Assembly: GCA_011050465.1 (NCBI GenBank)
Contig: DRFQ01000009.1
Location: 192,334 to 256,333 of the forward strand
DNA: 64,000 nucleotides
Origin: Candidatus Nealsonbacteria bacterium
Lineage (GTDB): Bacteria; Patescibacteriota; Minisyncoccia; Minisyncoccales; RBG-13-36-15
Direction of reading: 5' to 3'
Below, one piece after another: positions 1,956 through 58,251 of this stretch. Made by a program: the position numbers and the translations under genes. A model generated the notes under the pieces. It did no database searches, was not told where the DNA came from, and worked only from the letters and a program-made list of their open reading frames with translations. Each line of letters begins with the position of its first letter. Positions within the stretch are counted from its first letter, which is position 1.

Positions 1956-4214
1956 TTATGGAGCCGTCGTGGCTACTATTGTAACTATTGAACTATATTG
2001 AGCGGAAGAATCGGTGGCAGTAGGCATGGTTATTCTTAAATATAGATTTTGAGTGTTCCCCTGAGCCACATTATTTGCCAAATCATAAAGAATGTCTGGA
2101 GTTGAAAAAGTATTCCAAGTACTGGCATCCGGGGAAAATTCCCATTTAACTTGATTTGCTCCATTAGTTGAGTCTAAAGACCAGGAATTTCCATTGTCAG
2201 AAAAAACCGTACTTTTGACATCTAAATTAACAGGTCCTGTATTCACACTTACAGTTTGAACATCGCCGGAACTATCTACCATTACTCCAAGAGCAACAAC
2301 ACCAAACTCAACTAATCCATCGGTGGTCAAAGTAATGGAAACAGCCGGTGCATACGTTAAAGCAGCATAGGCATCAACTAATCCCCAACCATAATATTGA
2401 TCCCAGCCAGAACCTCCTTTATCTTCGGCGGTTGTTTGAAGAATATTTCTTATATCATCTGGAGTACGAGTAGAATCTTGGGCTAAAAGCAAAGCGACTA
2501 CCCCAGAAACGTGAGGAGTACTCATTGATGTCCCCTGGAAAAACCAATAAGCCCAATCAACTGGTGTGTCGCCAAAAGTGTTTTGCAGAATCCCATCAAC
2601 ATAACCGTCTCCATTTTGATCAACTCCAGTATTACCCCCAGGGGCCACAATGTCTAAACTAGACCCATAACTTGAATAAGGCGCTCTGGTCTCATTATAC
2701 TGTGTCGCCCCCACAGCAATCACATAATCATTATAGGCAGCCGGGTAATCGCAGCTACTAACATTACTATTACCACAAGCAGCAATTACCGTTACTCCAT
2801 TAGTATAAGCATAGGCAACAGCATTTTCTAAAACAGAGGAACTGGGACCACCCAAGCTCATATTAATTACTTTTGCTCCATTATCAACAGCATAATAAAT
2901 ACCATCTGCTACCTGTGGCCAAGTCCCAGAGCCAGCAGCATCTAAAACTTTAATTGGCATAATTGTAGTATTAAAAGCTACTCCAGCTACTCCCAAACTA
3001 TTATTGGTAGTCTGAGCTATAGTTCCTGCCACATGAGTTCCGTGAGAGTTATCGTCATTGGCATGGGTATCGCCATTAATATAATCGTAACCAGCTACAA
3101 AATTAGTGCCGGCTAAATCTGGTGCCTGCTTATATTGAGTTGCTTCCCAGGTTCCTGGCCCTAACTCAACATCATCGTAAAAGAGATTGCCCGAACCGTC
3201 TTCTAATGTAATTTCATCAACAAAAAATGCTCCATCTGAATTAAAAAACCCGTCTTCGTCGCTATAGGTTTCATCAGTATAAACTCTAAATCGTATTAAA
3301 ACATTTTGGCCAGCGTAACTGGTTAAATTTAAAGATTCGGCTTTCCAGCCAACCTGACCCTGCACCTTACTGTCTTTGGTATAGGTTTTTAAAATGATCC
3401 AGTTATCGCCTCCATCGGTTAAAATTTCAGTAAAGGCCTTATCATAGGCGGTTCCGGCTGTCACCTCCAGGTCGTGCCGGTATTGGTAAGAAAAAGTAAT
3501 AGTTCCGCTCGCTCCTGTTAAATCAAAGGAATGCTGTAAATAATCCTTCCAGCTATTGCCATAACCGGGTGGCGTTGACCAATTGGGGTTATTCAAGCCA
3601 CACCACCAGGAATTGCCAGAACCGCCGTAGGCCTGATAAGTATCAATATGGCAGTGGCCAGGAGCTGGGTAATCTTCATAAGCTACTCCAGTATCAACTA
3701 CTGCCACTATTACGCTTGAGCTTCCAGTGGTTATATCCCAGGCCTGTTCCATCTGGATACCGCCATAAGTTGCGTTATCAAAATGCCATTGTAGGGAATA
3801 GTAGGGGTCATTGGGAACCATGGTGGCATAGGCATAATAATTTGGTTCAGCGTATTCAATGTTTGGGTTTTTTTTATAAATTTCAACCATTTCTTCCACA
3901 GTTTTTAATGGAGGAATCTTCAAGACTTTAAAATGAGTATAAGGACTCTCGTATTTTTCCTCGACTCCTTTCTGGCGATTAAAATTCTCTACATCTTCTT
4001 TTTTTACTCCTGGCTTAAATTTGACAACAATTTCATCAGGAACATAAAGAGGCCTAGCTATCTTTTCTGAGGGTTCTTCTTTAACAAAAATTGGTAGCTC
4101 TTCCTGGGCTGCACCTTGACCAAAACCAACCCCCATTAGAAATTCCATTTCTAACGGGGCAAGCATTCCACCAATAATTAAAATCAATACGAAAATTTTA
4201 AATGTTTTTGACAT
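1956..4214 (-). CDS. secreted subtilisin-like serine protease (peptidase S8) with propeptide, large insert and C-terminal surface domain
   Basis: Catalytic triad motifs VAVVDTGV (D174), HGTHVAGTI (H391) and GTSMSTPHVSG (S563). It also has an N-terminal signal anchor and an I9-like propeptide (VVKFKPGV...YAEPNY). Confidence 0.9.
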   Translation of the reverse strand: MSKTFKIFVLILIIGGMLAPLEMEFLMGVGFGQGAAQEELPIFVKEEPSEKIARPLYVPDEIVVKFKPGVKKEDVENFNRQKGVEEKYESPYTHFKVLKIPPLKTVEEMVEIYKKNPNIEYAEPNYYAYATMVPNDPYYSLQWHFDNATYGGIQMEQAWDITTGSSSVIVAVVDTGVAYEDYPAPGHCHIDTYQAYGGSGNSWWCGLNNPNWSTPPGYGNSWKDYLQHSFDLTGASGTITFSYQYRHDLEVTAGTAYDKAFTEILTDGGDNWIILKTYTKDSKVQGQVGWKAESLNLTSYAGQNVLIRFRVYTDETYSDEDGFFNSDGAFFVDEITLEDGSGNLFYDDVELGPGTWEATQYKQAPDLAGTNFVAGYDYINGDTHANDDNSHGTHVAGTIAQTTNNSLGVAGVAFNTTIMPIKVLDAAGSGTWPQVADGIYYAVDNGAKVINMSLGGPSSSVLENAVAYAYTNGVTVIAACGNSNVSSCDYPAAYNDYVIAVGATQYNETRAPYSSYGSSLDIVAPGGNTGVDQNGDGYVDGILQNTFGDTPVDWAYWFFQGTSMSTPHVSGVVALLLAQDSTRTPDDIRNILQTTAEDKGGSGWDQYYGWGLVDAYAALTYAPAVSITLTTDGLVEFGVVALGVMVDSSGDVQTVSVNTGPVNLDVKSTVFSDNGNSWSLDSTNGANQVKWEFSPDASTWNTFSTPDILYDLANNVAQGNTQNLYLRITMPTATDSSAQYSSIVTIVATTAP

Positions 4215-5118: not shown

Positions 5119-5178
5119 ACCCCGTTAGAGATTTGTTCTCTTTGCATTTCTTCTTGCTCCCGGAATCTCTAACGGGGT
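5119..5178. repeat. palindromic element, ccccgttagag family (intergenic copy)
   Basis: Perfect 15-bp inverted repeat accccgttagagatt / aatctctaacggggt. The left arm plus the inner tgttctctttg is shared with the copy inside rsmH at 46376-46442. Confidence 0.7.
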
Positions 5179-5641: not shown

Positions 5642-5670
5642 TTGACTTTTTCTAATTAAGTCTATATAAT
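5642..5670 (+). promoter_or_regulatory. sigma70-type promoter (TTGACT-17 nt-TATAAT)
   Basis: TTGACT at 5642-5647, a 17-nt spacer, and TATAAT at 5665-5670, about 70 nt upstream of the only plus-strand gene in this region. Confidence 0.45.
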
Positions 5671-5741
5671 AAATAACATTGCTCTTTAAAATCCCGGCTT
5701 AAAAGAATAAACGAGGGAGAAGGCCTGAAAGGAGAGAACTC

Positions 5742-6518
5742 TTGGAAAGGAAAAAGATTAATAATATAGCGAGCGTGGCAATAATCATTAGAGCCTCAAA
5801 CCCAAGTCAGATTTTTATTGAATTAAAAGATGACGGTTACCCCATGAAGACGTTTCGCCGATGCCTCTGCCCTATTGGAGGCAATTGGATCGGTGAAGCG
5901 GCTAAATGCGACCAAAACCCGCTAGACACAGTCCGTCGCGAAATAATGGAAGAAATTTGCCTTGAAAAAAGAACGGCTTCTACGATCGAACTTGACCTGC
6001 TCGGCATCAAGCCGGGTAGAAGTTTTTACCAAGTTCCCACAATTGACCAAATTCCGACAAGCGATGATATCAAAATACTCGATGAGCTAAAACAAGTTAT
6101 TGCCGAGGGACTGGTGCCGTTCGGCGACTACATTAACACTATACCGAAATCGGTGCTGGATCGAAGTGACCCGGAAAACGAACGCGACGGTTTTAGTGCC
6201 CTTGTATCCTACTGGGCCGTTGCCCTTGACGAACAACGTTGGAAAGAAATCACTGCTCTTCAGGAAAAATTTGGGAACCTTTCCAATGAATCAATTACAC
6301 TCGTCACTTCGGTTGATGAAATCATCGAAGTGGGAGTGAAAACTGCCTTCGGGCACGATAGGCCGCTAAAGGAATTCTTTCTCTGTTACGGCCTTCATTC
6401 AGCCCAACAATTCCCGTTGATAAACGGGATTTCAAGCCAGGAAATCGGAAAACCATTGGCTTCTTATCAAGAATATCTTGAAAGATATGAAATTCTGAAA
6501 AAGCCGAAGTTCTTGTAG
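5742..6518 (+). CDS. hypothetical protein with divergent Nudix-like box
   Basis: TTG start preceded by aaaggagag. GGNWIGE...REIMEEICL resembles a Nudix box (Gx5E...REUxEExGU) but has about 6 extra residues and C in place of G. By eye the gene is GC-richer than its neighbours. Confidence 0.4.
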   Translation: MERKKINNIASVAIIIRASNPSQIFIELKDDGYPMKTFRRCLCPIGGNWIGEAAKCDQNPLDTVRREIMEEICLEKRTASTIELDLLGIKPGRSFYQVPTIDQIPTSDDIKILDELKQVIAEGLVPFGDYINTIPKSVLDRSDPENERDGFSALVSYWAVALDEQRWKEITALQEKFGNLSNESITLVTSVDEIIEVGVKTAFGHDRPLKEFFLCYGLHSAQQFPLINGISSQEIGKPLASYQEYLERYEILKKPKFL

Positions 6519-17110: not shown

Positions 17111-17315
17111 GCTGGCATCCTCGGTCTAGAACCCACAATTTAAGAGGAAATTCGGAGGTTTGAGGCGTGTCTCATTGACGCGTCTCGGTCAGGGTGTCCC
17201 GCCCTCTAAGCAAATAGATAAACATACAGCATAGAGGGCCGGGATGAGACAAATGAGACACTATTTAAGGGTATATTTTGGTGTCTCATTTCGGGCGTTC
17301 TATACCCTGCTACTT
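17111..17315 (-). repeat. modular repeat, copy A (full: L + H1 + H2 modules)
   Basis: ctggcatcctcggtctagaacc...gtgtctcattgacgcgtctcggtc, then hairpin cccgccctcta...tagagggccggg (17198-17243), then aaatgagacac-n19-gtgtctcattt (17251-17291). Confidence 0.8.
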
Positions 17316-20965: not shown

Positions 20966-21079
20966 ACGCGTCTCGGTCGGGGTGTCCCGCCCTCTAAGCA
21001 AATAGATAAACATACAGCATAGAGGACCGGGATGAGACAAATGGGACACTATTTAAGGGTATATTTTGGTGTCTCATTT
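20966..21079 (-). repeat. modular repeat, copy B (H1 + H2)
   Basis: acgcgtctcggtcggggtgtcccgccctctaagcaaatagataaacatacagcatagaggaccgggatgagacaaatgggacac...gtgtctcattt. Near-identical to copies A and C. Confidence 0.8.
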
Positions 21080-21141
21080 TTAGCTTATCCTACTGATGCC
21101 TGAAGGGATATTTCGCTATTTCAGAAATTTGTAGCCAACTA

Positions 21142-22506: not shown

Positions 22507-22620
22507 CGACGTCTCGGTCGGGGTGTCCCGCCCTCTAAGCAAATAGATAAACATACAGCATAGAGGGCCGGGATGAGACGAATGAGACACTATTTAAGGG
22601 TATATTCTGGTGTCTCATTT
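22507..22620 (-). repeat. modular repeat, copy C (H1 + H2)
   Basis: cgacgtctcggtcggggtgtcccgccctctaagc...catagagggccgggatgagacgaatgagacac...gtgtctcattt. Confidence 0.8.
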
Positions 22621-23492: not shown

Positions 23493-23756
23493 TTACCGAA
23501 GGGTTGGTTTGCCGAACTTAATAAGATTTAATTTCTTTTCTCTTCTCCATCCCTTAATTTCAGACTCTCGATGCATAGCCTCTTTTAATGTTTCAAATTC
23601 TTCTGAATATCTTAAAACAACTGGTCTGTGAATCTTAGTGTAATGAGCTCCCCATTTCGATTCGTTATGCTGTTTTACACGTTTTTCTAAGCTATTAGTA
23701 CAACCGACATAGAAAGAATAATCGGAACATTCAAGGATGTAAACGTAAAATACCAT
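23493..23756 (-). CDS. GIY-YIG nuclease family protein (small stand-alone type)
   Basis: MVFYVYILECSDYSFYVGCTNSLEKRVKQHN...EIKGW carries the GIY/YVG motifs, the conserved R and the conserved E. The start is taken at the internal ATG; the track's 25-aa extension runs through repeat sequence. Confidence 0.85.
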   Translation of the reverse strand: MVFYVYILECSDYSFYVGCTNSLEKRVKQHNESKWGAHYTKIHRPVVLRYSEEFETLKEAMHRESEIKGWRREKKLNLIKFGKPTLR

Positions 23757-23877
23757 ACTATTTGTCACTTCGTCGTTCCTCTCTTCGAGCCTGAGGCTCT
23801 CAGAGCCGAACGGCCTCAGTGCCTTCTTCAATATTATTTATAGTGCCAAAGGCCCTGATGAATGAAGTGAAGAAGGG

Positions 23878-31997: not shown

Positions 31998-32275
31998 TTC
32001 GAGCGAGCGTAACGAGCGAGAACCCCGCCCTCTATGCTATATGTATTATGTTTATATCTTGCAAAGAAAAAGAAACAGTCATTTTTATATAGGTTATACT
32101 AATAATTTAAAAAAGAGGGTTAAACAACACCAAAGAAAAGATCAATCTCGGTTAATTTATTACGAAGCTTATCTGTCAGAAAAAATAGCAAGGATAAGAG
32201 AAAGAAGATTAAAACATTATGGAAGTGCCTGGCGAGCCCTCAGAAAGAGAATTGGTGCTTAGAGGGCGGGGTGTC
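31998..32275 (+). mobile_element. hairpin-bracketed GIY-YIG element (candidate autonomous copy)
   Basis: Inverted arms ccccgccctctatgc (32023-32037) and gcttagagggcgggg (32257-32271) enclose the ORF. The flank ttcgagcgagcgtaacgagcgagaa is shared with the ORF-less copy at 47291-47382. Confidence 0.5.
32041..32262 (+). CDS. GIY-YIG nuclease family protein
   Basis: MYYVYILQRKRNSHFYIGYTNNLKKRVKQH...RERRLK carries the GIY/YIG motifs with the conserved R and E. Confidence 0.8.
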   Translation: MYYVYILQRKRNSHFYIGYTNNLKKRVKQHQRKDQSRLIYYEAYLSEKIARIRERRLKHYGSAWRALRKRIGA

Positions 32276-45767: not shown

Positions 45768-46823
45768 CTATATTTTTACTGCTGCTCTTAATTTAGCCGA
45801 CCTTGATCGAGGATTGACTCGAATTTCTTCAGGGCTTGGCCTGACCGGCTTTTTTGTTAAAATTCTAAGCCTCGATACTATTCGCCTTTGGCGAAAGTAC
45901 GGGGCAGGCAATCCCGCCTTCGATAAATCTTCGGCGGACAAGTCGGCGGGCAAGCCCTCCTTAGCTTTCTCAAATTTTGTTTCGCAAACTTTGAGAGGAT
46001 TAGCCATTTTTTTGAAGAAATTTTTTACAATCCTATCTTCCAAAGAATGGAAAGAAATTATAACTAATCTTCCGCCTTTCCTTATGCTTTCCAGAGCCTG
46101 AGGAAGGGTTCTTTCTAGATTATTTAATTCGTCATTAACGGCGATCCTTAAGGCCTGAAAAGTTCTAGTGGCAAAATGGATACGGTTCCTCAAATATCTC
46201 TTTGGCACAACATATTTTATGGTTTCTGCCAGCTGGAAGGTGGTTTTAATAGGCCTTATGTTTCGTTTTTCAATAATACTTTCGGCAATAATCCGGGCAT
46301 ATCTTTCTTCTCCATAGTCCTTTAAGATTTTCTCTATTGCATCTTTTGACCAAAAATTGAGAATCTTCTCAGCAGTTAACCCCGTTAGAGGTTTGTTCTC
46401 TTTGTGCTTCCGCCAAGCCCCGTTGACCTTTAACGGGGTTAAAGGATTCTGAGGATTGTATCTCATGTCCAGGGGTTCATTTCTCAAAAAGCTGAATCCA
46501 CGACCCGACTCTTCCAAATGCCAGCTGGACATTCCTAAATCAAACAAAATTCCAGAGATTGGCCTAATTTTTTTAATGATCTCTTTTAGGTTGATATAGG
46601 AGTCTCGAACTAAAGTTAATCGTTTCCTAATTCCTGTGGCTTTCAACTTTTTATATAATTCCTGGTCTATTTCAATCCCTAATACTTTTCCTCTGGGTCC
46701 ATTTTTCTCCAATATGGCTAAACTGTGTCCTCCTTGGCCAAACGTACAATCAATAAAATTTTCGTTTGATTTTGGGTCAAGATATTCAAGAATTTCTTTC
46801 TGGAGAACAGGGATATGAATCAT
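45768..46823 (-). CDS. rsmH: 16S rRNA (cytosine1402-N4)-methyltransferase
   Basis: HIPVL, DCTFGQGGHS, FDLGMSSWHLE, GRGFSF, RTFQALRIAVNDEL, ISFHSLEDRIVK and [10 protein letters not shown]. Carries two extra in-frame segments. Confidence 0.9.
   Translation of the reverse strand: MIHIPVLQKEILEYLDPKSNENFIDCTFGQGGHSLAILEKNGPRGKVLGIEIDQELYKKLKATGIRKRLTLVRDSYINLKEIIKKIRPISGILFDLGMSSWHLEESGRGFSFLRNEPLDMRYNPQNPLTPLKVNGAWRKHKENKPLTGLTAEKILNFWSKDAIEKILKDYGEERYARIIAESIIEKRNIRPIKTTFQLAETIKYVVPKRYLRNRIHFATRTFQALRIAVNDELNNLERTLPQALESIRKGGRLVIISFHSLEDRIVKNFFKKMANPLKVCETKFEKAKEGLPADLSAEDLSKAGLPAPYFRQRRIVSRLRILTKKPVRPSPEEIRVNPRSRSAKLRAAVKI
45872..45956. repeat. about 84-nt GC-rich repeat inserted in frame in rsmH (C-terminal region)
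   Basis: Present in rsmH but absent from the duplicated remnant at 44794-44914. Contains sub-palindromes ttcgcctttggcgaa and ggcaggcaatcccgcc. Encodes LPADLSAEDLSKAGLPAPYFRQRRIVSR. Confidence 0.7.
46376..46442. repeat. palindromic element, ccccgttagag family, inserted in frame in rsmH
   Basis: 17-bp inverted repeat ttaaccccgttagaggt / acctttaacggggttaa (one mismatch). Shares ccccgttagagRtttgttctctttg with 5119-5178. Encodes about NPLTPLKVNGAWRKHKENKPLTG. Confidence 0.7.
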
Positions 46824-47290: not shown

Positions 47291-47382
47291 AGCTCGGGAG
47301 CGAGCCGGTTAATACCCCGCCCTCTAAGCTTAATGAAATATTACATAGGAGGCGGGGTTCTCGTTCGCTACGCTCACTCGAA
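47291..47382 (-). repeat. ORF-less copy of the GIY-YIG hairpin element
   Basis: Arms ccccgccctcta (47315-47326) and taggaggcgggg (47346-47357) with a 19-nt loop. The flank ggttctcgttcgctacgctcactcgaa is the reverse complement of the flank at 31998-32022, with a few mismatches. Confidence 0.65.
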
Positions 47383-47471: not shown

Positions 47472-47820
47472 CATAAAATAACCCTGCTTAAAATAGCTTT
47501 GAGTCTTATAATTTATCCACAGGTTATTAACACCCCGCACCAATTTTACCGTTAATTCTAAATAACACCCGTTTTTAGAAATATAAGCTCTATAAAACTC
47601 TCGCGACGATCGGGATCGGATCAAACCAGTCGGTGCTTCGCCCCTCCTTGTAATTGCTTCGCAATTAAGAGGCCTTTCCCGTGGAGAGAGTGTCGCCATA
47701 GTTTTTCTCGCAAAATTAAGGCGGGACACACCCAAAAAAATTAGTGCGGTGCAGGCACCCAAATAAAAAACCTTGAGTTTTTAAACTCAAGATGTTTTTC
47801 CTAGAAAATTCCTATTCTCT

Positions 47821-53113: not shown

Positions 53114-54712
53114 TTACTCATATTCAATGGTGGCTGGAGGTTTCTGAGAAATATCGTAAAGAACTCTATTAACGCCTTTTACTTCATTAATAATTCTATT
53201 TGAAATTTTCTCTAAAACATCTCCGGGAATTTTTGCCCAATCGGCCGTCATTCCATCTTTAGAACTAACTGCTCGCAAAGAAACGATGTATTCATAAGTT
53301 CTGGTATCCCCCATTACTCCTACACTTTTAAGCGGCAGCAAGGAGGCAAATGCTTGCCAAATTTTATCGTATAGTTTGGCTTTTTTTAATTCAGCGATAA
53401 AAATACTGTCAGCTTCTCTTAAAATTGATAATCTTTCTTTGGTAACCTCACCCAGTATTCTTATAGATAAGCCTGGGCCCGGAAAGGGATGTCTTTTAAT
53501 AATGGATTTTGGCAGTCCTAATTTTTCTCCCAACTTTCTTACTTCGTCTTTATAAAGATCCTTAATCGGTTCAATAATTTGGAACTTTAATTTCCTTGGC
53601 AAGGCAATATTATGATGGCTTTTAATTTTCGCTGCTTTGTTAAAAGGTTGGGCGGATTCAATCCGGTCCGGATAAATAGTTCCTTGAGCCAAGAATTTAA
53701 TTTTTACTTCTTTTTCTATTTCTTTAACTTTTCTTTCAAAAACTTTTATAAAGGTTTTGCCAATTATTTTTCTTTTCTTTTCAGGATCAATAACATTATT
53801 TAAATTAGCAAGAAATTCGTTTGAAGAATCAACGAAGGAAAAATTTTTAAATCCTACTTTTTTGAAAGTTTTTCTAATTTCATCTGCTTCTTTCTTTCGA
53901 AGCAAACCGTTATCAATAAAAACAGCGTAAAGATTATCCCCTATTGCCTTCTGTAATAAAACTGCTGCAACGAAAGAATCGACCCCTCCTGAAACTCCTA
54001 TGAGAACTGGCTTTTTCCCTATTTGTGCCTGTATCTTGGCGATAATATTGTCTTTAATGTCTCCGATTTTCCAAACTTTCTTTTCCCTGCAAATGTCATA
54101 AATAAAATTCTTTAGGATATCTAATCCGTGGACAGTGTGGGTAACCTCCGGGTGAAATTGAACTCCAAAAATTTTATTATCATCATCGGCAAAAGCAGCT
54201 ATTCTACAGGTCCTGCTTTCGGCAATTCTCTTAAAATTTTGAGGTAATTTTATGACTGAATCGCCATGAGAAAACCACACTTTCTCTTTTTTATTAAGCC
54301 CTTTAAATAACCCCCCACCACTTTTCGTGTGGTCTGTTTGGCCAAATTTATCTCCTTGAAAAGTGGTGGGGGGTAAATTACTTTTTTCTAAAATTGTGAT
54401 GGTTTCTCTGCCATATTCTCCTGATTTTCCTCTTTTGACTTTTCCGCCAAGCATTTTAGTTATGAGTTGCTGGCCATAACAAATTCCTAAAATTGGGATA
54501 TTTAGTTTAAAAATTCCCTTCGTAGGAAAAAGAGCGTCTTTGTCGTAAATAGAAAAAGGACCACCAGAAAGAATCAGTCCTTTGGGGTTAAACTTTTTAA
54601 TTTGAGATACTTTGGAGTCAAAAGGCAGAATTTCCGAATAACACCCCAGCTCTCTTATTCTTCGAGAAATTAAATGAGTATATTGACTTCCAAAATTCAA
54701 AACAATTATCAT
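53114..54712 (-). CDS. guaA: GMP synthase (glutamine-hydrolysing)
   Basis: GATase block (ILGICYGQQL, FGVQFHPE), ATP-PPase P-loop (GVSGGVDS), and the C-terminal dimerisation domain ending PPATIEYE. Confidence 0.95.
   Translation of the reverse strand: MIIVLNFGSQYTHLISRRIRELGCYSEILPFDSKVSQIKKFNPKGLILSGGPFSIYDKDALFPTKGIFKLNIPILGICYGQQLITKMLGGKVKRGKSGEYGRETITILEKSNLPPTTFQGDKFGQTDHTKSGGGLFKGLNKKEKVWFSHGDSVIKLPQNFKRIAESRTCRIAAFADDDNKIFGVQFHPEVTHTVHGLDILKNFIYDICREKKVWKIGDIKDNIIAKIQAQIGKKPVLIGVSGGVDSFVAAVLLQKAIGDNLYAVFIDNGLLRKKEADEIRKTFKKVGFKNFSFVDSSNEFLANLNNVIDPEKKRKIIGKTFIKVFERKVKEIEKEVKIKFLAQGTIYPDRIESAQPFNKAAKIKSHHNIALPRKLKFQIIEPIKDLYKDEVRKLGEKLGLPKSIIKRHPFPGPGLSIRILGEVTKERLSILREADSIFIAELKKAKLYDKIWQAFASLLPLKSVGVMGDTRTYEYIVSLRAVSSKDGMTADWAKIPGDVLEKISNRIINEVKGVNRVLYDISQKPPATIEYE
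54310..54374. repeat. palindromic element inserted in frame in guaA
   Basis: Perfect 16-bp inverted repeat accccccaccactttt (54310-54325) / aaaagtggtggggggt (54359-54374). Encodes LPPTTFQGDKFGQTDHTKSGGG within the GATase domain. Confidence 0.75.
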
Positions 54713-56184: not shown

Positions 56185-58173
56185 ATGCAAGTTTTTGAAT
56201 TTCATTTTAATCCGAAAGCCAAAGAAGATGTCATTTACGATAGCTTTGTTTTTGAGCCGGAAAATATCTGGGAAAGAAAAATGGGCAAGCTTTATATGGT
56301 AGGTACTCTCTCTAATGTTTTACCTCAGAATACCAGATTCCTAGAACAATTAAGCGCTCAAATTAAAAAAGAATATTATCGGGTTACAGAACGTTCTCCG
56401 GAACTCTCTCTCGGAGAATGTTTAAAGGAAGCTAATGAATTTTTGGCAGAAGAGACCAAGAAAGGAAATGTTAGTTGGCTGGGAAATCTTGATTTTGCCG
56501 TTCTTTCTTTAAAAGACAATACTATCAATTTCACAACCACGGGAGATATTTCACTTTTTATTCTAAGAGAAGGGCAAATAACCGATATTAATCAAACCTT
56601 AAGGCTGCAGGAAATAGAACCATATCCGCTAAAAATTTTTAGCAATACTGTTTCTGGAAAAATTTCTTCCGATGATAGAATAGTGATTTTAACCAAAAAA
56701 GTCTCTGATTTTTTTGCTGCTGAAAATCTATTAGAAGATATTGCTAAGCTGGAAAAAATCGGAGAAAAAGAACTCAAAAAGATATTTCAAAAGAAAGAAT
56801 TTATTTCTTCAGAAATTTCTGGAATTTGCTTTTTAGTTGATTTGGTTGGAGAAGAAACTGCTAAAGAAAGGGTGACTCTTGAAAAAAAGATATTACCTTT
56901 TTCAATTTGGCAAATTTCGAACTTCTTTTCAAAAGAAAAAATTCGAAAGTTATTGTTGAAATTAAAGCCTTCTCAAATTCAAGTAAAAATTCCTCAGGAG
57001 CTAAAATTCCAACTTCCTGTCTTCAGCTTATTTAAACTGCCGGTTCTCAATTTGCTTACAAGATTACCAAAAGTCAGTATTTCCCAGGCTTCCAAAAGAA
57101 ATTCACTATTAATCTTAATCCTTATTTTCGTCCTTACTGTAGGAGGATTTTTGGCGAATCTTGAAAGAAAAGGAGAGATCGAAAAAATTCAGCTTATCTT
57201 AGTTGAGGTGGAAGAAAAGATTCAATCAGCCCAAGAAGCTCTAATTTCGGAAAATAGAGAAAAGGCCAATACACTCTATCAACAGGCCTGGGACATAATT
57301 CTACCTTTAGATAAAACTGACAGTCCGGTAGAAAATAAAGTTTTTCAATTAAAAAACTTAATTGAATCCCAGCTTATTCCTTTAAATAAACTGGAAATAA
57401 TCGATAATCCAGAAATAATTTTTGATTTTGGAACAGTTAATTTTACTCCCCAGAAAATGGTTGGATTTAAAGAAAAACTCTATTTATTTAATCCTTATTT
57501 GGCGGATATTTATCGATTAGAACCAAAAGAAAAAGGAGTTGATGCCATTCAGGTTGAAGACAAATTTAATTTAGCGGCTGCCTTAGAAAAAAAGGGTATG
57601 CTTCTATTTTTTTCCCGGCCCAATAAATTATTTTCTTTTGAAGAAAATCAGTTTAGACGGGCCTTCTTCCTTAAAGACCCATATCCTGATTATCAATTCA
57701 ATGATTTCGCTATTTTTCAGTTAAACCTTTACTTCCTGGATAATAAAAAGGGAGAAATTTTAAAATATTCTTTCAATGAAAATCGGATTGAATTTCAGGG
57801 AAGTCTCTGGCTTAGCTTAGCGACGAAAAAACCAATTGATGCAAAATCAATGGCAATAGATGGTTCAATTTGGATTTTAACTAAAGGGTATGAAATCGAG
57901 AAATACACCAAGGGCTTCTTTGAAGAAAAACTTGAGTTTAATTTCTTTCCTTACATTGAAAAGCCAACTAAAATCTTTACCGCAGACAATCTTCCTTATC
58001 TCTATATTTTAGAGCCGGCAGAAAAAAGAATCATCATTACAACTAAAGAGGGGGAAATTTTGCAACAATTTCAGTCAGACCAATTCAATAATTTAAAAGA
58101 TTTTTCAGTATCAGAAGATGGTAAAACAATTTATCTTTTAAACGGAATTAAGGTTTATAAAGTCGGATTTTGA
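56185..58173 (+). CDS. hypothetical membrane protein (N-terminal PP2C/SpoIIE-like segment tentative; C-terminal beta-rich domain)
   Basis: 662-aa ORF with a central TM helix (LLILILIFVLTVGGFLANL). FTTTGDISLFILREGQI...SSDDRIVILTKKV vaguely recalls PP2C-type strands. Confidence 0.55.
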   Translation: MQVFEFHFNPKAKEDVIYDSFVFEPENIWERKMGKLYMVGTLSNVLPQNTRFLEQLSAQIKKEYYRVTERSPELSLGECLKEANEFLAEETKKGNVSWLGNLDFAVLSLKDNTINFTTTGDISLFILREGQITDINQTLRLQEIEPYPLKIFSNTVSGKISSDDRIVILTKKVSDFFAAENLLEDIAKLEKIGEKELKKIFQKKEFISSEISGICFLVDLVGEETAKERVTLEKKILPFSIWQISNFFSKEKIRKLLLKLKPSQIQVKIPQELKFQLPVFSLFKLPVLNLLTRLPKVSISQASKRNSLLILILIFVLTVGGFLANLERKGEIEKIQLILVEVEEKIQSAQEALISENREKANTLYQQAWDIILPLDKTDSPVENKVFQLKNLIESQLIPLNKLEIIDNPEIIFDFGTVNFTPQKMVGFKEKLYLFNPYLADIYRLEPKEKGVDAIQVEDKFNLAAALEKKGMLLFFSRPNKLFSFEENQFRRAFFLKDPYPDYQFNDFAIFQLNLYFLDNKKGEILKYSFNENRIEFQGSLWLSLATKKPIDAKSMAIDGSIWILTKGYEIEKYTKGFFEEKLEFNFFPYIEKPTKIFTADNLPYLYILEPAEKRIIITTKEGEILQQFQSDQFNNLKDFSVSEDGKTIYLLNGIKVYKVGF

Positions 58174-58251
58174 CAGTTATTGTTTTGATTAAAATAAAGT
58201 AAAAGCCGGGCTCAGCCCGGCTTTTACTTTACAAGATATTACTGAATATTC

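Follow-up and report, generated by a model that had tools for sequence, protein, structure and literature searches.

A palindromic insertion in guaA of a Patescibacteria-type genome and its GIY-YIG-associated relatives

A stable hairpin in frame within guaA

The window analysed here is a 64-kb stretch of DNA from a Patescibacteria-type genome. It carries guaA, whose product is matched by E. coli GuaA (1gpm) at E = 2.7e-159, and inside this gene lies one copy of a palindromic family that we call F1 (family 1). The features of the locus are as follows.

53114..54712, minus strand: guaA, the host gene, for glutamine-hydrolysing GMP synthase, 532 aa (open reading frame; homologues; Pfam GATase and GMP_synt_C)
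54311..54373, minus strand: F1 hairpin core, 63 nt, CCCCCC...GGGGGG (sequence, fold and orthologue alignment)
54310..54326, strand not assigned: left arm of a perfect 17-bp stem, ACCCCCCACCACTTTTC
54358..54374, strand not assigned: right arm of this stem, GAAAAGTGGTGGGGGGT
54308..54310, minus strand: coding-strand TTA (Leu135), which with the next entry forms the 3-nt direct repeat around the core
54374..54376, minus strand: TTA on the coding strand (Leu113), the other copy of the flanking direct repeat

Together with one TTA, the 63-nt core makes up a 66-nt insertion of 22 codons, which encodes LPPTTFQGDKFGQTDHTKSGGG (GuaA residues 113-134). The original prediction had the reading frame preserved through the palindrome, and indeed the 22 residues are in frame and free of stops. 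It had also described a perfect 16-bp stem around a 33-nt loop; its coordinates and sequence were right, but the lengths had to be corrected to 17 bp and 31 nt. The stem can be extended imperfectly to 23 nt at 91%. The RNA fold of the segment reached -34.9 kcal/mol (z = -4.8), a value that none of 200 shuffles equalled. This is the longest large-loop hairpin of the window, and the maximal stem in 20 block-shuffled windows never exceeded 13 bp, compared with the 17 bp in guaA.

Nearly all of the 120 best GuaA homologues are 509-512 aa long. In an alignment of 16 GuaA proteins, 14 of the 15 others showed a clean 22-residue gap between EKSN and LFKGL, as expected from the earlier statement that other GuaA proteins run almost directly on to xLFxGL. 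The alignment proposed as a check thus yielded the clean insertion of about 22 aa that had been looked for, against orthologues of about 70% identity that lack the segment. Their DNA continues uninterrupted through the site as AAY TTA TTY, with a single TTA where guaA here reads TTA-[63 nt]-TTA, and so the outcome that would have refuted the idea, a lineage-wide loop without palindromic DNA, did not occur. The insert falls in a variable segment of the protein: AF2 gave a pLDDT below 50 at residues 112-133 only, with confident strands on either side. Another GuaA (P0017) has a 25-aa insert at the same point, encoded by purine-rich, low-complexity, non-palindromic DNA; we rejected it as a relative and regard it as a different element. 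That an unrelated insert sits at the same point shows that the loop is permissive.

The variable site and this unrelated low-complexity insert are also what one could cite for a lineage-specific loop expansion with a chance palindrome, the other trivial possibility being an assembly artefact. We give practically no weight to either. No perfect 17-bp stem arose in shuffles, and the identical element is present in guaA of two other assemblies, hence in three, while 9 nt differ elsewhere in the gene, and so it did not arise in assembly. The arms also recur across genome and metagenome loci, more than 120 of them from unrelated projects, and this recurrence rules out both explanations.

Distribution of the F1 arms and their short copies

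The F1 arms are 15-17-bp terminal inverted repeats, CCCCCCACCACTTTT(C/A) and its complement. We scanned species-representative genomes for the pattern CCCCCCACCAC(TTTT)...(AAAA)GTGGTGGGGGG, specifying only 11 nt per arm and requiring perfect 11-mers, and obtained 53 loci, where a uniform base composition would predict about 0.7. Nearly all of them lie in Patescibacteria, Omnitrophota or Saccharibacteria MAGs, and a single MAG held up to six exact-arm loci, a number that is a lower bound. Because perfect 11-mers were required, the conservation of the arms is partly an ascertainment effect. The inner arm bases TTT/AAA were left unspecified in the scan, and they are kept on both sides in 45 of the 53 loci.

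These 53 loci and 73 further ones in metagenomes, along with the absence of the segment from orthologues, support the earlier reading of a mobile palindromic element rather than sequence divergence. The accompanying expectation that the arms would turn up elsewhere was met in other genomes and metagenomes. There is no second F1 copy in the window, where a search for arms with up to three mismatches returned only a doubtful solo match at 47532 without a hairpin. Neither the short nor the long F1 pattern had a match among 2.9 million viral contigs, and therefore we have no evidence for a phage vector.

Short F1 copies have variable loops and span 52-71 nt in total. The guaA loop is homologous to the loops of four other copies (L039, L051, L008 and L044), with scores of 12, 10, 9 and 7, whereas the null never exceeded 6. 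At least ten F1 copies lie in long reading frames, all of which stay open through the element, and seven host genes were identified by Pfam. The in-frame hosts comprise UvrA, GltX, MiaA, RecG (two sites), trigger factor (tig), an FAD oxidoreductase and prepilin leaders, and all three reading frames are used. The arms contain zero stop codons across six frames and encode linkers rich in Pro, Thr, Gly and Ser (PPTTF...KSGGG). In the prepilin copies the element-encoded GGG supplies the residue before FTLIE, and translation of the element is therefore implied.

The identical TTA codons around the 63-nt core, with a very stable hairpin between them, would also suit an insert that is absent from mature GuaA, either since the ribosome bypasses it from TTA to TTA or since it is removed from the mRNA. 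T4 gene 60 and the mitochondrial 'byp' elements of Magnusiomyces are precedents for bypass. We nevertheless consider this highly improbable. Bypass would not need an open frame, yet every copy within a long ORF keeps one; no stop codon stands at a take-off site; no intron or ribozyme family was matched; and the prepilin junction just described points to translation. Rfam at gathering threshold found only three tRNAs in the whole window and nothing at the guaA element. With no Rfam family at the element, a group I or II intron was dismissed, and at 22 aa the insert is too short for an intein. Peptides such as SNLPPTTFQGDK would mark read-through, whereas the junction SNLFK would mark bypass or excision.

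Direct repeats of at least 3 nt flank the elements at 21 of 107 unique sites, compared with 6.1 +/- 2.3 in permutations. They read TTA in guaA, TTAA at a copy of another family, F2, in rsmH, and TTTA at the prepilin sites. No flanking duplication is present at 79 of the 107 sites, all copies in helix P3 of RNase P RNA included. For the RecG copies L028 and L055, reciprocal presence and absence was seen, with boundaries too diverged for a duplication to be read.

Arms that enclose a GIY-YIG nuclease gene

At the 73 metagenome loci about 255 nt lie between the F1 arms, which brings the whole unit to about 285 nt, and 64 of these loci hold an intact single-domain GIY-YIG gene of 83-91 aa, amounting to 49 distinct proteins with a mean identity of 62%. 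Two further F1-armed GIY-YIG ORFs were found among the genome loci. The ATG follows directly after the left repeat, and the stop lies at or within the right repeat. In an ORF-bearing relative, Pfam PF01541 covered residues 1-71 of 84 aa at E = 4e-18. An NCBIfam scan of the F1 nuclease gave nothing above cut-off, and its best score for group I intron endonuclease also stayed below. The 64-kb window contains no F1-armed nuclease gene (the rest of the genome was outside the scan), and the GIY-YIG gene that the same arms enclose elsewhere was not visible to the earlier reader from the window sequence.

Short and ORF-bearing F1 forms coexist in the same MAG. The MAG H43-bin052_1 has one complete copy, one 101-nt copy and three short ORF-less copies; one of the short copies (L056) forms the leader of a prepilin, and the other two are in-frame insertions, L006 in uvrA and L053 in the gene of an FAD oxidoreductase. 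When the short loops were treated as prefix plus suffix of nuclease-bearing interiors, there was no general signal (window z = 0.6). Local alignment gave a weak score for the 101-nt L056 copy (27 against a null of 19 +/- 3), and for an F3 short copy (see below) it was not significant without anchoring. Since the short loops could not be aligned with the ORF ends, their origin by deletion is unproven and we do not claim it; the ORF may instead have invaded pre-existing hairpins.

F1 copies also occur in RNA genes. In 23S rRNA they occupy one site in three genomes. They are likewise present in RNase P RNA, where one third of the ORF-bearing metagenome loci replace helix P3, always co-oriented with the RNA, and where the same site of orthologous genes has the short form in some genomes and the ORF-bearing form in others. 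Covariance models score the interrupted RNase P RNA genes at 32-40 bits against a gathering score of 100, and scores so far below threshold affect the annotation of these genomes. Matches of miRNA families on the L018 hairpin were discarded as spurious hairpin matches.

The window itself holds one F1 copy, two to three F2 copies and five copies of a family F3, which is a sister family of F1. The F2 and F3 elements, together with another small GIY-YIG gene, are listed below.

46380..46438, minus strand: F2 hairpin in frame in rsmH (45768-46823), arms CCCCGTTAGAGG / CCTTTAACGGGG
5119..5178: second F2 hairpin, intergenic, with the arms and half of the loop in common with the rsmH copy
32022..32272, plus strand: complete F3 element, arms ACCCCGCCCTCTATGC / GCTTAGAGGGCGGGGT, enclosing a 73-aa GIY-YIG ORF at 32041-32262 (tblastn; inverted repeat)
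17197..17243: ORF-less F3 hairpin within a composite repeat of about 115 bp, its arm ends asymmetric as in the complete element
20985..21031: second copy of this composite repeat, likewise with an ORF-less F3 hairpin
22526..22572: third copy of this composite repeat, again with an ORF-less F3 hairpin
47315..47357: ORF-less F3 hairpin with GAGCGAGC-type flanking repeats like those beside the complete element
23493..23831, minus strand: another small GIY-YIG gene, not enclosed by arms of this kind (tblastn; Pfam GIY-YIG, E = 7.5e-18)

TTAA stands on both sides of the rsmH copy, at 46376-46379 and 46439-46442. The copy encodes residues 128-148, which have no aligned counterpart in T. maritima MraW (1m6y) and fall between its positions 137 and 138, and the Pfam Methyltransf_5 match to the rsmH product is split in two. 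The F3 ORF was recognized by Pfam GIY-YIG at E = 2.9e-9, and its TAG stop lies inside the right arm.

Comparison with known systems and interpretation

Rickettsia palindromic elements (RPEs) are roughly 100-150 bp long, are translated as extra surface loops and have also been reported in RNA genes; we know of no mobilising enzyme assigned to them. Their in-frame occurrence in protein genes was reportedly described by Ogata et al. in 2000 and 2002. The likeness is that of repeated palindromic DNA in frame in housekeeping genes, in reduced genomes of host-dependent bacteria, and two criteria for it were borne out, namely a multi-copy palindrome family and in-frame insertion with the ORF left open (guaA, rsmH, UvrA, GltX, MiaA, RecG and Tig). 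F1 differs in its occurrence in Patescibacteria and Omnitrophota, its length of about 52-71 bp, its sharp 15-17-bp terminal inverted repeats, its enriched 3-4-nt flanking duplications and its ORF-bearing GIY-YIG members. The resemblance to RPEs first suggested for the guaA segment therefore holds as an analogy and not as membership, in view of the phylum, the length of about 63 bp, the terminal repeats and the duplications. We treat F1 as an RPE analogue on account of size, termini and phylum, without a comparison to the RPE consensus.

A close parallel for the enclosed gene is found in Ssn, a GIY-YIG protein of about 90 aa with a single domain; on either side of its gene stand repeats that are present in many copies per genome (Chenal et al. 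2025, PMC11893778). These repeats (NTS/SRM) form hairpins, and the authors note an IS-like architecture and list Rickettsia and Wolbachia among the SRM-rich genomes; we found no mention of Patescibacteria in the text (PMC11893778). The ORF-bearing F1 relatives, though not the guaA copy, encode a single-domain GIY-YIG protein of similar size, and the F1 or F3 nuclease gene is flanked on both sides by repeated arms. In contrast to Ssn, where each flank is a hairpin of its own of 20-50 nt, the F1 flanks are two halves of one stem with the gene in the loop. NTS seldom fall within genes (2%), whereas F1 copies interrupt protein genes in frame and take the place of helices in RNase P RNA and 23S rRNA. 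The published SRM motif HGTCWY...RNCYNB had 0 matches on both strands of the window, with a shuffled mean of 0.1. Overall, the F1 system resembles Ssn/NTS with a different architecture; neither membership of the Ssn clade, CDD cd10448 or GIY-YIG_unchar_3, nor ssDNA cleavage has been shown.

This parallel raises the question of whether the hairpin is the primary repeat, REP or NTS/SRM-like, which the host retains as a mark recognised by an Ssn-like ssDNA nuclease, so that transformation or recombination is modulated around genes or within them; the nuclease gene would then be merely a loop resident and the guaA copy domesticated. NTS hairpins with SsnA do modulate transformation in Neisseria (PMC11893778), the short-copy loops are not recognisably ORF-derived, the arms are conserved at the nucleotide level in every frame and context, and the same RNase P helix has the short or the ORF-bearing form in different genomes. 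We still find such a host mark unlikely, although it cannot be put aside as readily as bypass. The copies are scattered over unrelated genes, their positions are not orthologous, and close orthologues lack them, all of which is more in keeping with selfish insertions that survived than with a conserved role for the host. Moreover, the flanking duplications indicate insertion events, and intragenic NTS are as rare as 2% in N. meningitidis (PMC11893778).

Several other systems share part of the F1 organization. REP/BIME-RAYT and IS200/IS605 have short GC-rich multiplied hairpins and a small nuclease gene flanked by its own hairpin, and ssDNA hairpin recognition is proposed for these as for F1; however, the gene enclosed by F1 is GIY-YIG in 64 of the 73 loci and not HUH/Y1, although the genome, the window included, may still contain a RAYT-type gene. 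REPs lie outside genes, and target duplications are not made by IS200/IS605. MITEs, for example the Correia elements of Neisseria, are similarly small, with terminal inverted repeats and many ORF-less copies beside longer ORF-bearing relatives with the same ends, and they are occasionally in frame; their short AT-rich target duplications have a counterpart at a minority of the sites examined here. The guaA copy meets this description in its perfect 17-bp terminal repeats, its 63 nt and its lack of an ORF of its own. The description fails for the longer relatives with the same ends: at about 285 bp they encode only a GIY-YIG nuclease domain, neither a DDE transposase nor any other known transposase class, and the short-copy interiors are not demonstrably deletion products. 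The mobile GC clusters and 'byp' elements of yeast mitochondria are also GC-rich palindromes spread in AT-rich compact genomes, rRNA and coding sequence included. Homing endonucleases resemble F1 in that a conserved RNA gene may have or lack a nuclease ORF at a given site, but in F1 there is no intron or intein for removal, the stem itself replaces the helix, and the 85-aa nuclease has none of the DNA-binding domains that I-TevI-type enzymes carry. The literature that we consulted, on palindromes, MITEs or GIY-YIG in Patescibacteria and on RNase P or RPEs with GIY-YIG, does not describe these elements, which is not proof of novelty.

We conclude that the guaA segment is probably a copy of F1 that has no ORF and is not autonomous, F1 being a palindromic mobile-element family of Patescibacteria and Omnitrophota associated with GIY-YIG genes; mobilisation by the nuclease is inferred. 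The element would have inserted at TTA through a short staggered break that was then filled in. In single-stranded DNA the arms may pair into a hairpin that serves as the recognition site of the family's GIY-YIG nuclease, an inference made by analogy with the ssDNA-specific Ssn nucleases and the NTS/SRM hairpins. The cleavage needed for spread would come from this nuclease, its gene lying at another place in the genome, although its activity is likewise only inferred. A point against this reading is that GIY-YIG nucleases cut by hydrolysis and that none is known to act as a transposase. Situated in frame in a surface loop, the copy is presumably read through as a harmless disordered loop, and it could survive in guaA because its arms are stop-free in six frames and encode linker-type residues; copies in RNA genes may survive because the stem is able to stand in for a helix. 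For GuaA itself the hairpin would have no function.

A more far-reaching proposal, which we put forward only tentatively and think will more probably fail than hold, is that the units of about 285 bp, each an 85-aa GIY-YIG gene between inverted repeats, move autonomously and form a new class of mobile element, in which case none smaller would be known. Their nuclease would recognise the hairpin of its own ends, its short staggered cuts would leave the 3-4-nt duplications, and it would be expressed by riding host transcripts, for example as RNase P RNA helix P3 or a prepilin leader; the ORF-less hairpins would be the bacterial RPE counterpart.

The implications extend beyond guaA. Translated palindromic insertions in the manner of Rickettsia would extend to another group of bacteria with reduced genomes, one that is very large and not related to the first, and therefore odd insertions in CPR proteins and RNAs need not be errors or adaptations. 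In this group the in-frame palindromes are physically tied to a nuclease gene. If the units of about 285 bp are indeed autonomous, they would offer a testable mechanism for the spread of protein-coding palindromes, those of Rickettsia included. A protein gene that serves as a co-oriented helix P3 of RNase P RNA is an unusual, intron-free entry into an essential ribozyme. Finally, if the nucleases act like the Ssn enzymes, each arm family (F1-F4) would represent a new ssDNA cleavage specificity.

The guaA hairpin as an inserted repeat

Palindromes inserted in frame have been described in Rickettsia; the original prediction held that such an element, rather than ordinary divergence, interrupts guaA here, with a 16-bp stem and a 33-nt loop. 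Position and sequence were correct; the lengths are 17 bp and 31 nt.

Features of the guaA locus
53114-54712, minus strand: guaA (GMP synthase), an ORF of 532 aa
54310-54326 and 54358-54374: arms of a perfect 17-bp stem, imperfectly extendable up to 23 nt, around a 31-nt loop

The hairpin RNA folds at -34.9 kcal/mol (z = -4.8), and no block-shuffled window contained a stem longer than 13 bp. The hairpin encodes LPPTTFQGDKFGQTDHTKSGGG, residues 113-134 of GuaA. Nearly all of the 120 best GuaA homologues have 509-512 aa, and the closest (about 70% identical; named Azambacteria or Patescibacteria) pass from EKSN to LFKGL with a clean gap of 22 residues. The DNA of three orthologues runs uninterrupted through this site (AAC TTA TTC, AGT TTA TTC and AAC ATA TTT), as expected for the predicted clean in-frame insertion of about 22 aa. 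A single TTA in orthologue DNA against a TTA on both sides of the 63 nt in the window (AAT TTA, CCCCCC...GGGGGG, TTA TTT) means that one TTA is duplicated. In two other assemblies the element is identical, with 9 substitutions elsewhere in the gene.

We searched for other copies of the arms in one genome per species (596 Gb), using the pattern CCCCCCACCAC-N30-50-GTGGTGGGGGG. This gave 53 loci across other genomes, against approximately 0.7 expected at uniform composition by our own arithmetic. Nearly all come from MAGs of Patescibacteria, Saccharibacteria or Omnitrophota, and some MAGs hold several loci each (6, 6, 4, 3, 2, 2, 2 and 2); three GC-rich matches (Blastococcus, Caulobacter and a Bacteriovoracaceae MAG) seem fortuitous. 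The same patterns found no match in 2.9 million viral contigs. TTT and AAA beside the specified 11-mers are kept on both sides in 45 of the 53 elements, so the real arm of this family (F1) is CCCCCCACCACTTTT, as in the window. F1 loops vary in length and sequence. Nevertheless, aligning the guaA loop with those of four other genomes gave 12, 10, 9 and 7, versus a maximum of 6 for shuffled controls, which places the guaA copy in a 62-65-nt Patescibacteria subfamily, homologous over its whole length. With orthologues lacking the segment and its arms recurring in other genomes, the segment was inserted into guaA and belongs to a family of repeated hairpins, and the reading as an in-frame palindromic mobile element is supported.

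Concerning PERMISSIVENESS of the guaA site, an AlphaFold2 model (16-sequence alignment, mean pLDDT 78.9) gives pLDDT below 50 for residues 112-133, which lie between two confidently modelled strands, E100-107 and E142-148. The length of this stretch is different in E. coli GuaA (1gpm) as well. Another GuaA homologue (P0017, locus L001) has a 25-aa Gly/Lys-rich insert (about nt 395-470) at exactly the window's hairpin loop. We rejected it as the same element, since its low-complexity, purine-rich DNA contains no palindrome. An unrelated insert at the same point shows that the loop can accept inserts of differing origin. Survivorship best accounts for the element's persistence in guaA: the insert is 66 nt long, free of stops and linker-like at its ends, and it sits in a loop that is disordered.

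F1 in proteins, structural RNAs and spacers

In two candidate phyla, F1 occupies proteins and structural RNAs as well as spacers. At least 10 short copies lie within long ORFs that stay open.

In-frame hosts of short F1 copies
UvrA
Class I Glu/Gln-tRNA synthetase (GltX)
MiaA
Trigger factor
FAD-dependent oxidoreductase
RecG: two different sites in two genomes
Prepilin-like proteins: leader encoded by the element as far as ...KSGGG, followed by FTLIEL

The arms, read from sequence, are stop-free in all six frames, and all three reading frames are used (PPTTF..KSGGG, PHHF..KVVGG and PPPL..KWWG). The MiaA copy (L016, 746-813) is a nested double F1, one hairpin inside another's loop, read through as PPTTFDSPHHFLKKSGGGKVVGG.

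In the 23S rRNA gene, three Patescibacteria genomes carry F1 hairpins at one identical site, with the flanks GGATAAGCC..[element]..CGCAGCGAAAG.

23S rRNA copies
L017, 2466-2535
L019, 779-830
L047, 3418-3477

Three short copies occupy one helix of RNase P RNA, aligned to the P15-P17 region stem of the class A model. Omnitrophota copies are mostly intergenic, with longer palindromic flanks in common.

Overall, 21 of the 107 unique F1 sites have a flanking direct repeat of at least 3 nt (TTA, TAA, TTTA, TAAA, TCAA and others), compared with 6.1 +/- 2.3 (maximum 15) when left and right flanks were permuted 2000 times. About 5 of the 21 are Omnitrophota sites; the longer flanks that these share may make the count too high.

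F1 arms also enclose a GIY-YIG nuclease gene

In some fetched loci the arms are about 100 or 283 nt apart. The ~283-nt versions, one of them frameshifted, encode an 84-aa protein with the Pfam GIY-YIG catalytic domain (E = 4e-18). We then scanned metagenomes for 14-nt arms 240-270 nt apart. An intact GIY-YIG ORF of 83-91 aa was present in 64 of 73 loci, starting 0-8 nt past the left arm and stopping at or in the right arm; the rest are frameshifted. The 49 distinct nucleases share a mean identity of 62% (44-99%).

Nineteen of the 57 unique nuclease-bearing sites lie directly 5' of (G)AGGAAAGTCCG, the RNase P RNA segment CR-I, which is universally conserved, with the ORF in the sense of the RNA in all 19 and antisense in none. 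In L063 the element (5648-5933) lies between GGAUAGCUA and CR-I; the covariance model assigns UAGCUAUC, the partner of GGAUAGCUA, to the 3' strand of the P1/P2 stem. The element thus takes the place of helix P3. L063 and 18 other unique loci (e.g. L070, L085 and L093) have the ~285-nt element as P3, directly before AGGAAAGUCC. These RNAs score only 32-40 bits against the Rfam class A gathering score of 100, and no flanking duplication was found at the P3 copies. Other ORF-bearing copies (L100, L109, L116 and L117) sit at the RNase P helix holding ORF-less hairpins in other genomes.

Eight nuclease-bearing elements lie before TTTACNC. In L086, MKNAFTLIE reappears once the element is taken out together with one TTTA. 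In L087 (1706-1992 and downstream) the ORF reads on across the right arm to FTLIEILVV..., which makes a GIY-YIG-pilin fusion of 230 aa. Fusion to a prepilin-like protein via the element-encoded KSGGG occurs in L112 too, and the nuclease of L087-type fusions occupies the leader peptide position. L088 carries tandem nuclease-bearing elements (345-622 and 641-946), one F1-armed and the next with CCCAGCCCCAGTTTTAGGT arms (perfect 19 bp), a fourth arm family enclosing a GIY-YIG gene.

Sister families and the inferred mode of spread

By tblastn, the window has two small GIY-YIG genes. All families share one plan, (A)CCCC...GGGG(T), with a 13-19-bp stem that closes either a short loop or a GIY-YIG gene.

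Sister elements and GIY-YIG genes in the window
32041-32262: F3 GIY-YIG gene, arms ACCCCGCCCTCTATGC / GCTTAGAGGGCGGGGT, TAG stop inside the right arm
~17197, ~20985, ~22526, ~47315: ORF-less F3 hairpins, three in a 115-bp composite repeat
5119-5178, 46380-46438: F2 hairpins, arms CCCCGTTAGAG
23493-23831, minus strand: another small GIY-YIG gene (Pfam E = 7.5e-18), lacking C-run arms

The ORF-less F3 hairpins have the asymmetric arm ends CTCTATGC / GCTTAGAG of the complete element and match it at 9 of 10 bases after the left arm. The intergenic composite repeat (about 115 bp; 17177-17291, 20966-21080 and 22507-22620) joins an ORF-less F3 hairpin (CCCGCCCTCTAAGC...GCATAGAGGGCCGGG) to a second hairpin, AAATGAGACAC-19 nt-GTGTCTCATTT. 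F2 has further hairpins in other fetched Patescibacteria contigs. Its copy at 46380-46438 lies in frame in rsmH with TTAA flanks; the 21 residues encoded (128-148) are exactly the part unaligned with T. maritima MraW (positions 137/138).

A second rsmH insertion (45876-46007, residues 273-316; 44 aa), not in MraW (positions 260/262), has a 12-bp hairpin as well as remnants of CCCGCC/GGCGGG; it may be an element in decay. The gene at 23493-23831 lies between direct repeats CAGTGAGAYTCCAAGCCC (~23900 and ~23440); TCGAGCGAGC motifs bracket it and also occur 5' of the complete F3 element. A minimal hairpin with F2-like arms and a 3-nt loop, CCCCCATTAGAAAT-TCC-ATTTCTAACGGGG, is at 4131-4159. The perfect 18-bp palindrome at 58195-58231 (TAAAGTAAAAGCCGGGCT c AGCCCGGCTTTTACTTTA, 1-nt loop), just after an ORF end at 58173, looks like a bidirectional terminator.

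Ssn, a single-domain GIY-YIG nuclease of about 94 aa, cuts ssDNA beside NTS/SRM hairpins, which flank ssn genes and are multiplied in the genome; its authors, describing these repeats in 2025, liken the arrangement to IS200/IS605 and REP/RAYT (PMC11893778). Ssn genes lie between two hairpins, whereas the F1 gene lies in the loop of one, and the published SRM motif gave no match. Literature searches found nothing on F1, on its occurrence in Patescibacteria or Omnitrophota or on its insertions in frame and into RNA helices, nor on a GIY-YIG gene that serves as P3 of RNase P RNA. Short copies may have lost the ORF, or the ORF may have invaded hairpins. By analogy with the Ssn family, the F1 nuclease would recognise the hairpin and supply the cleavage for its spread, both activity and recognition being inferred. 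We consider it possible, though less likely than not, that the 285-bp units are minimal autonomous mobile elements of a new class.
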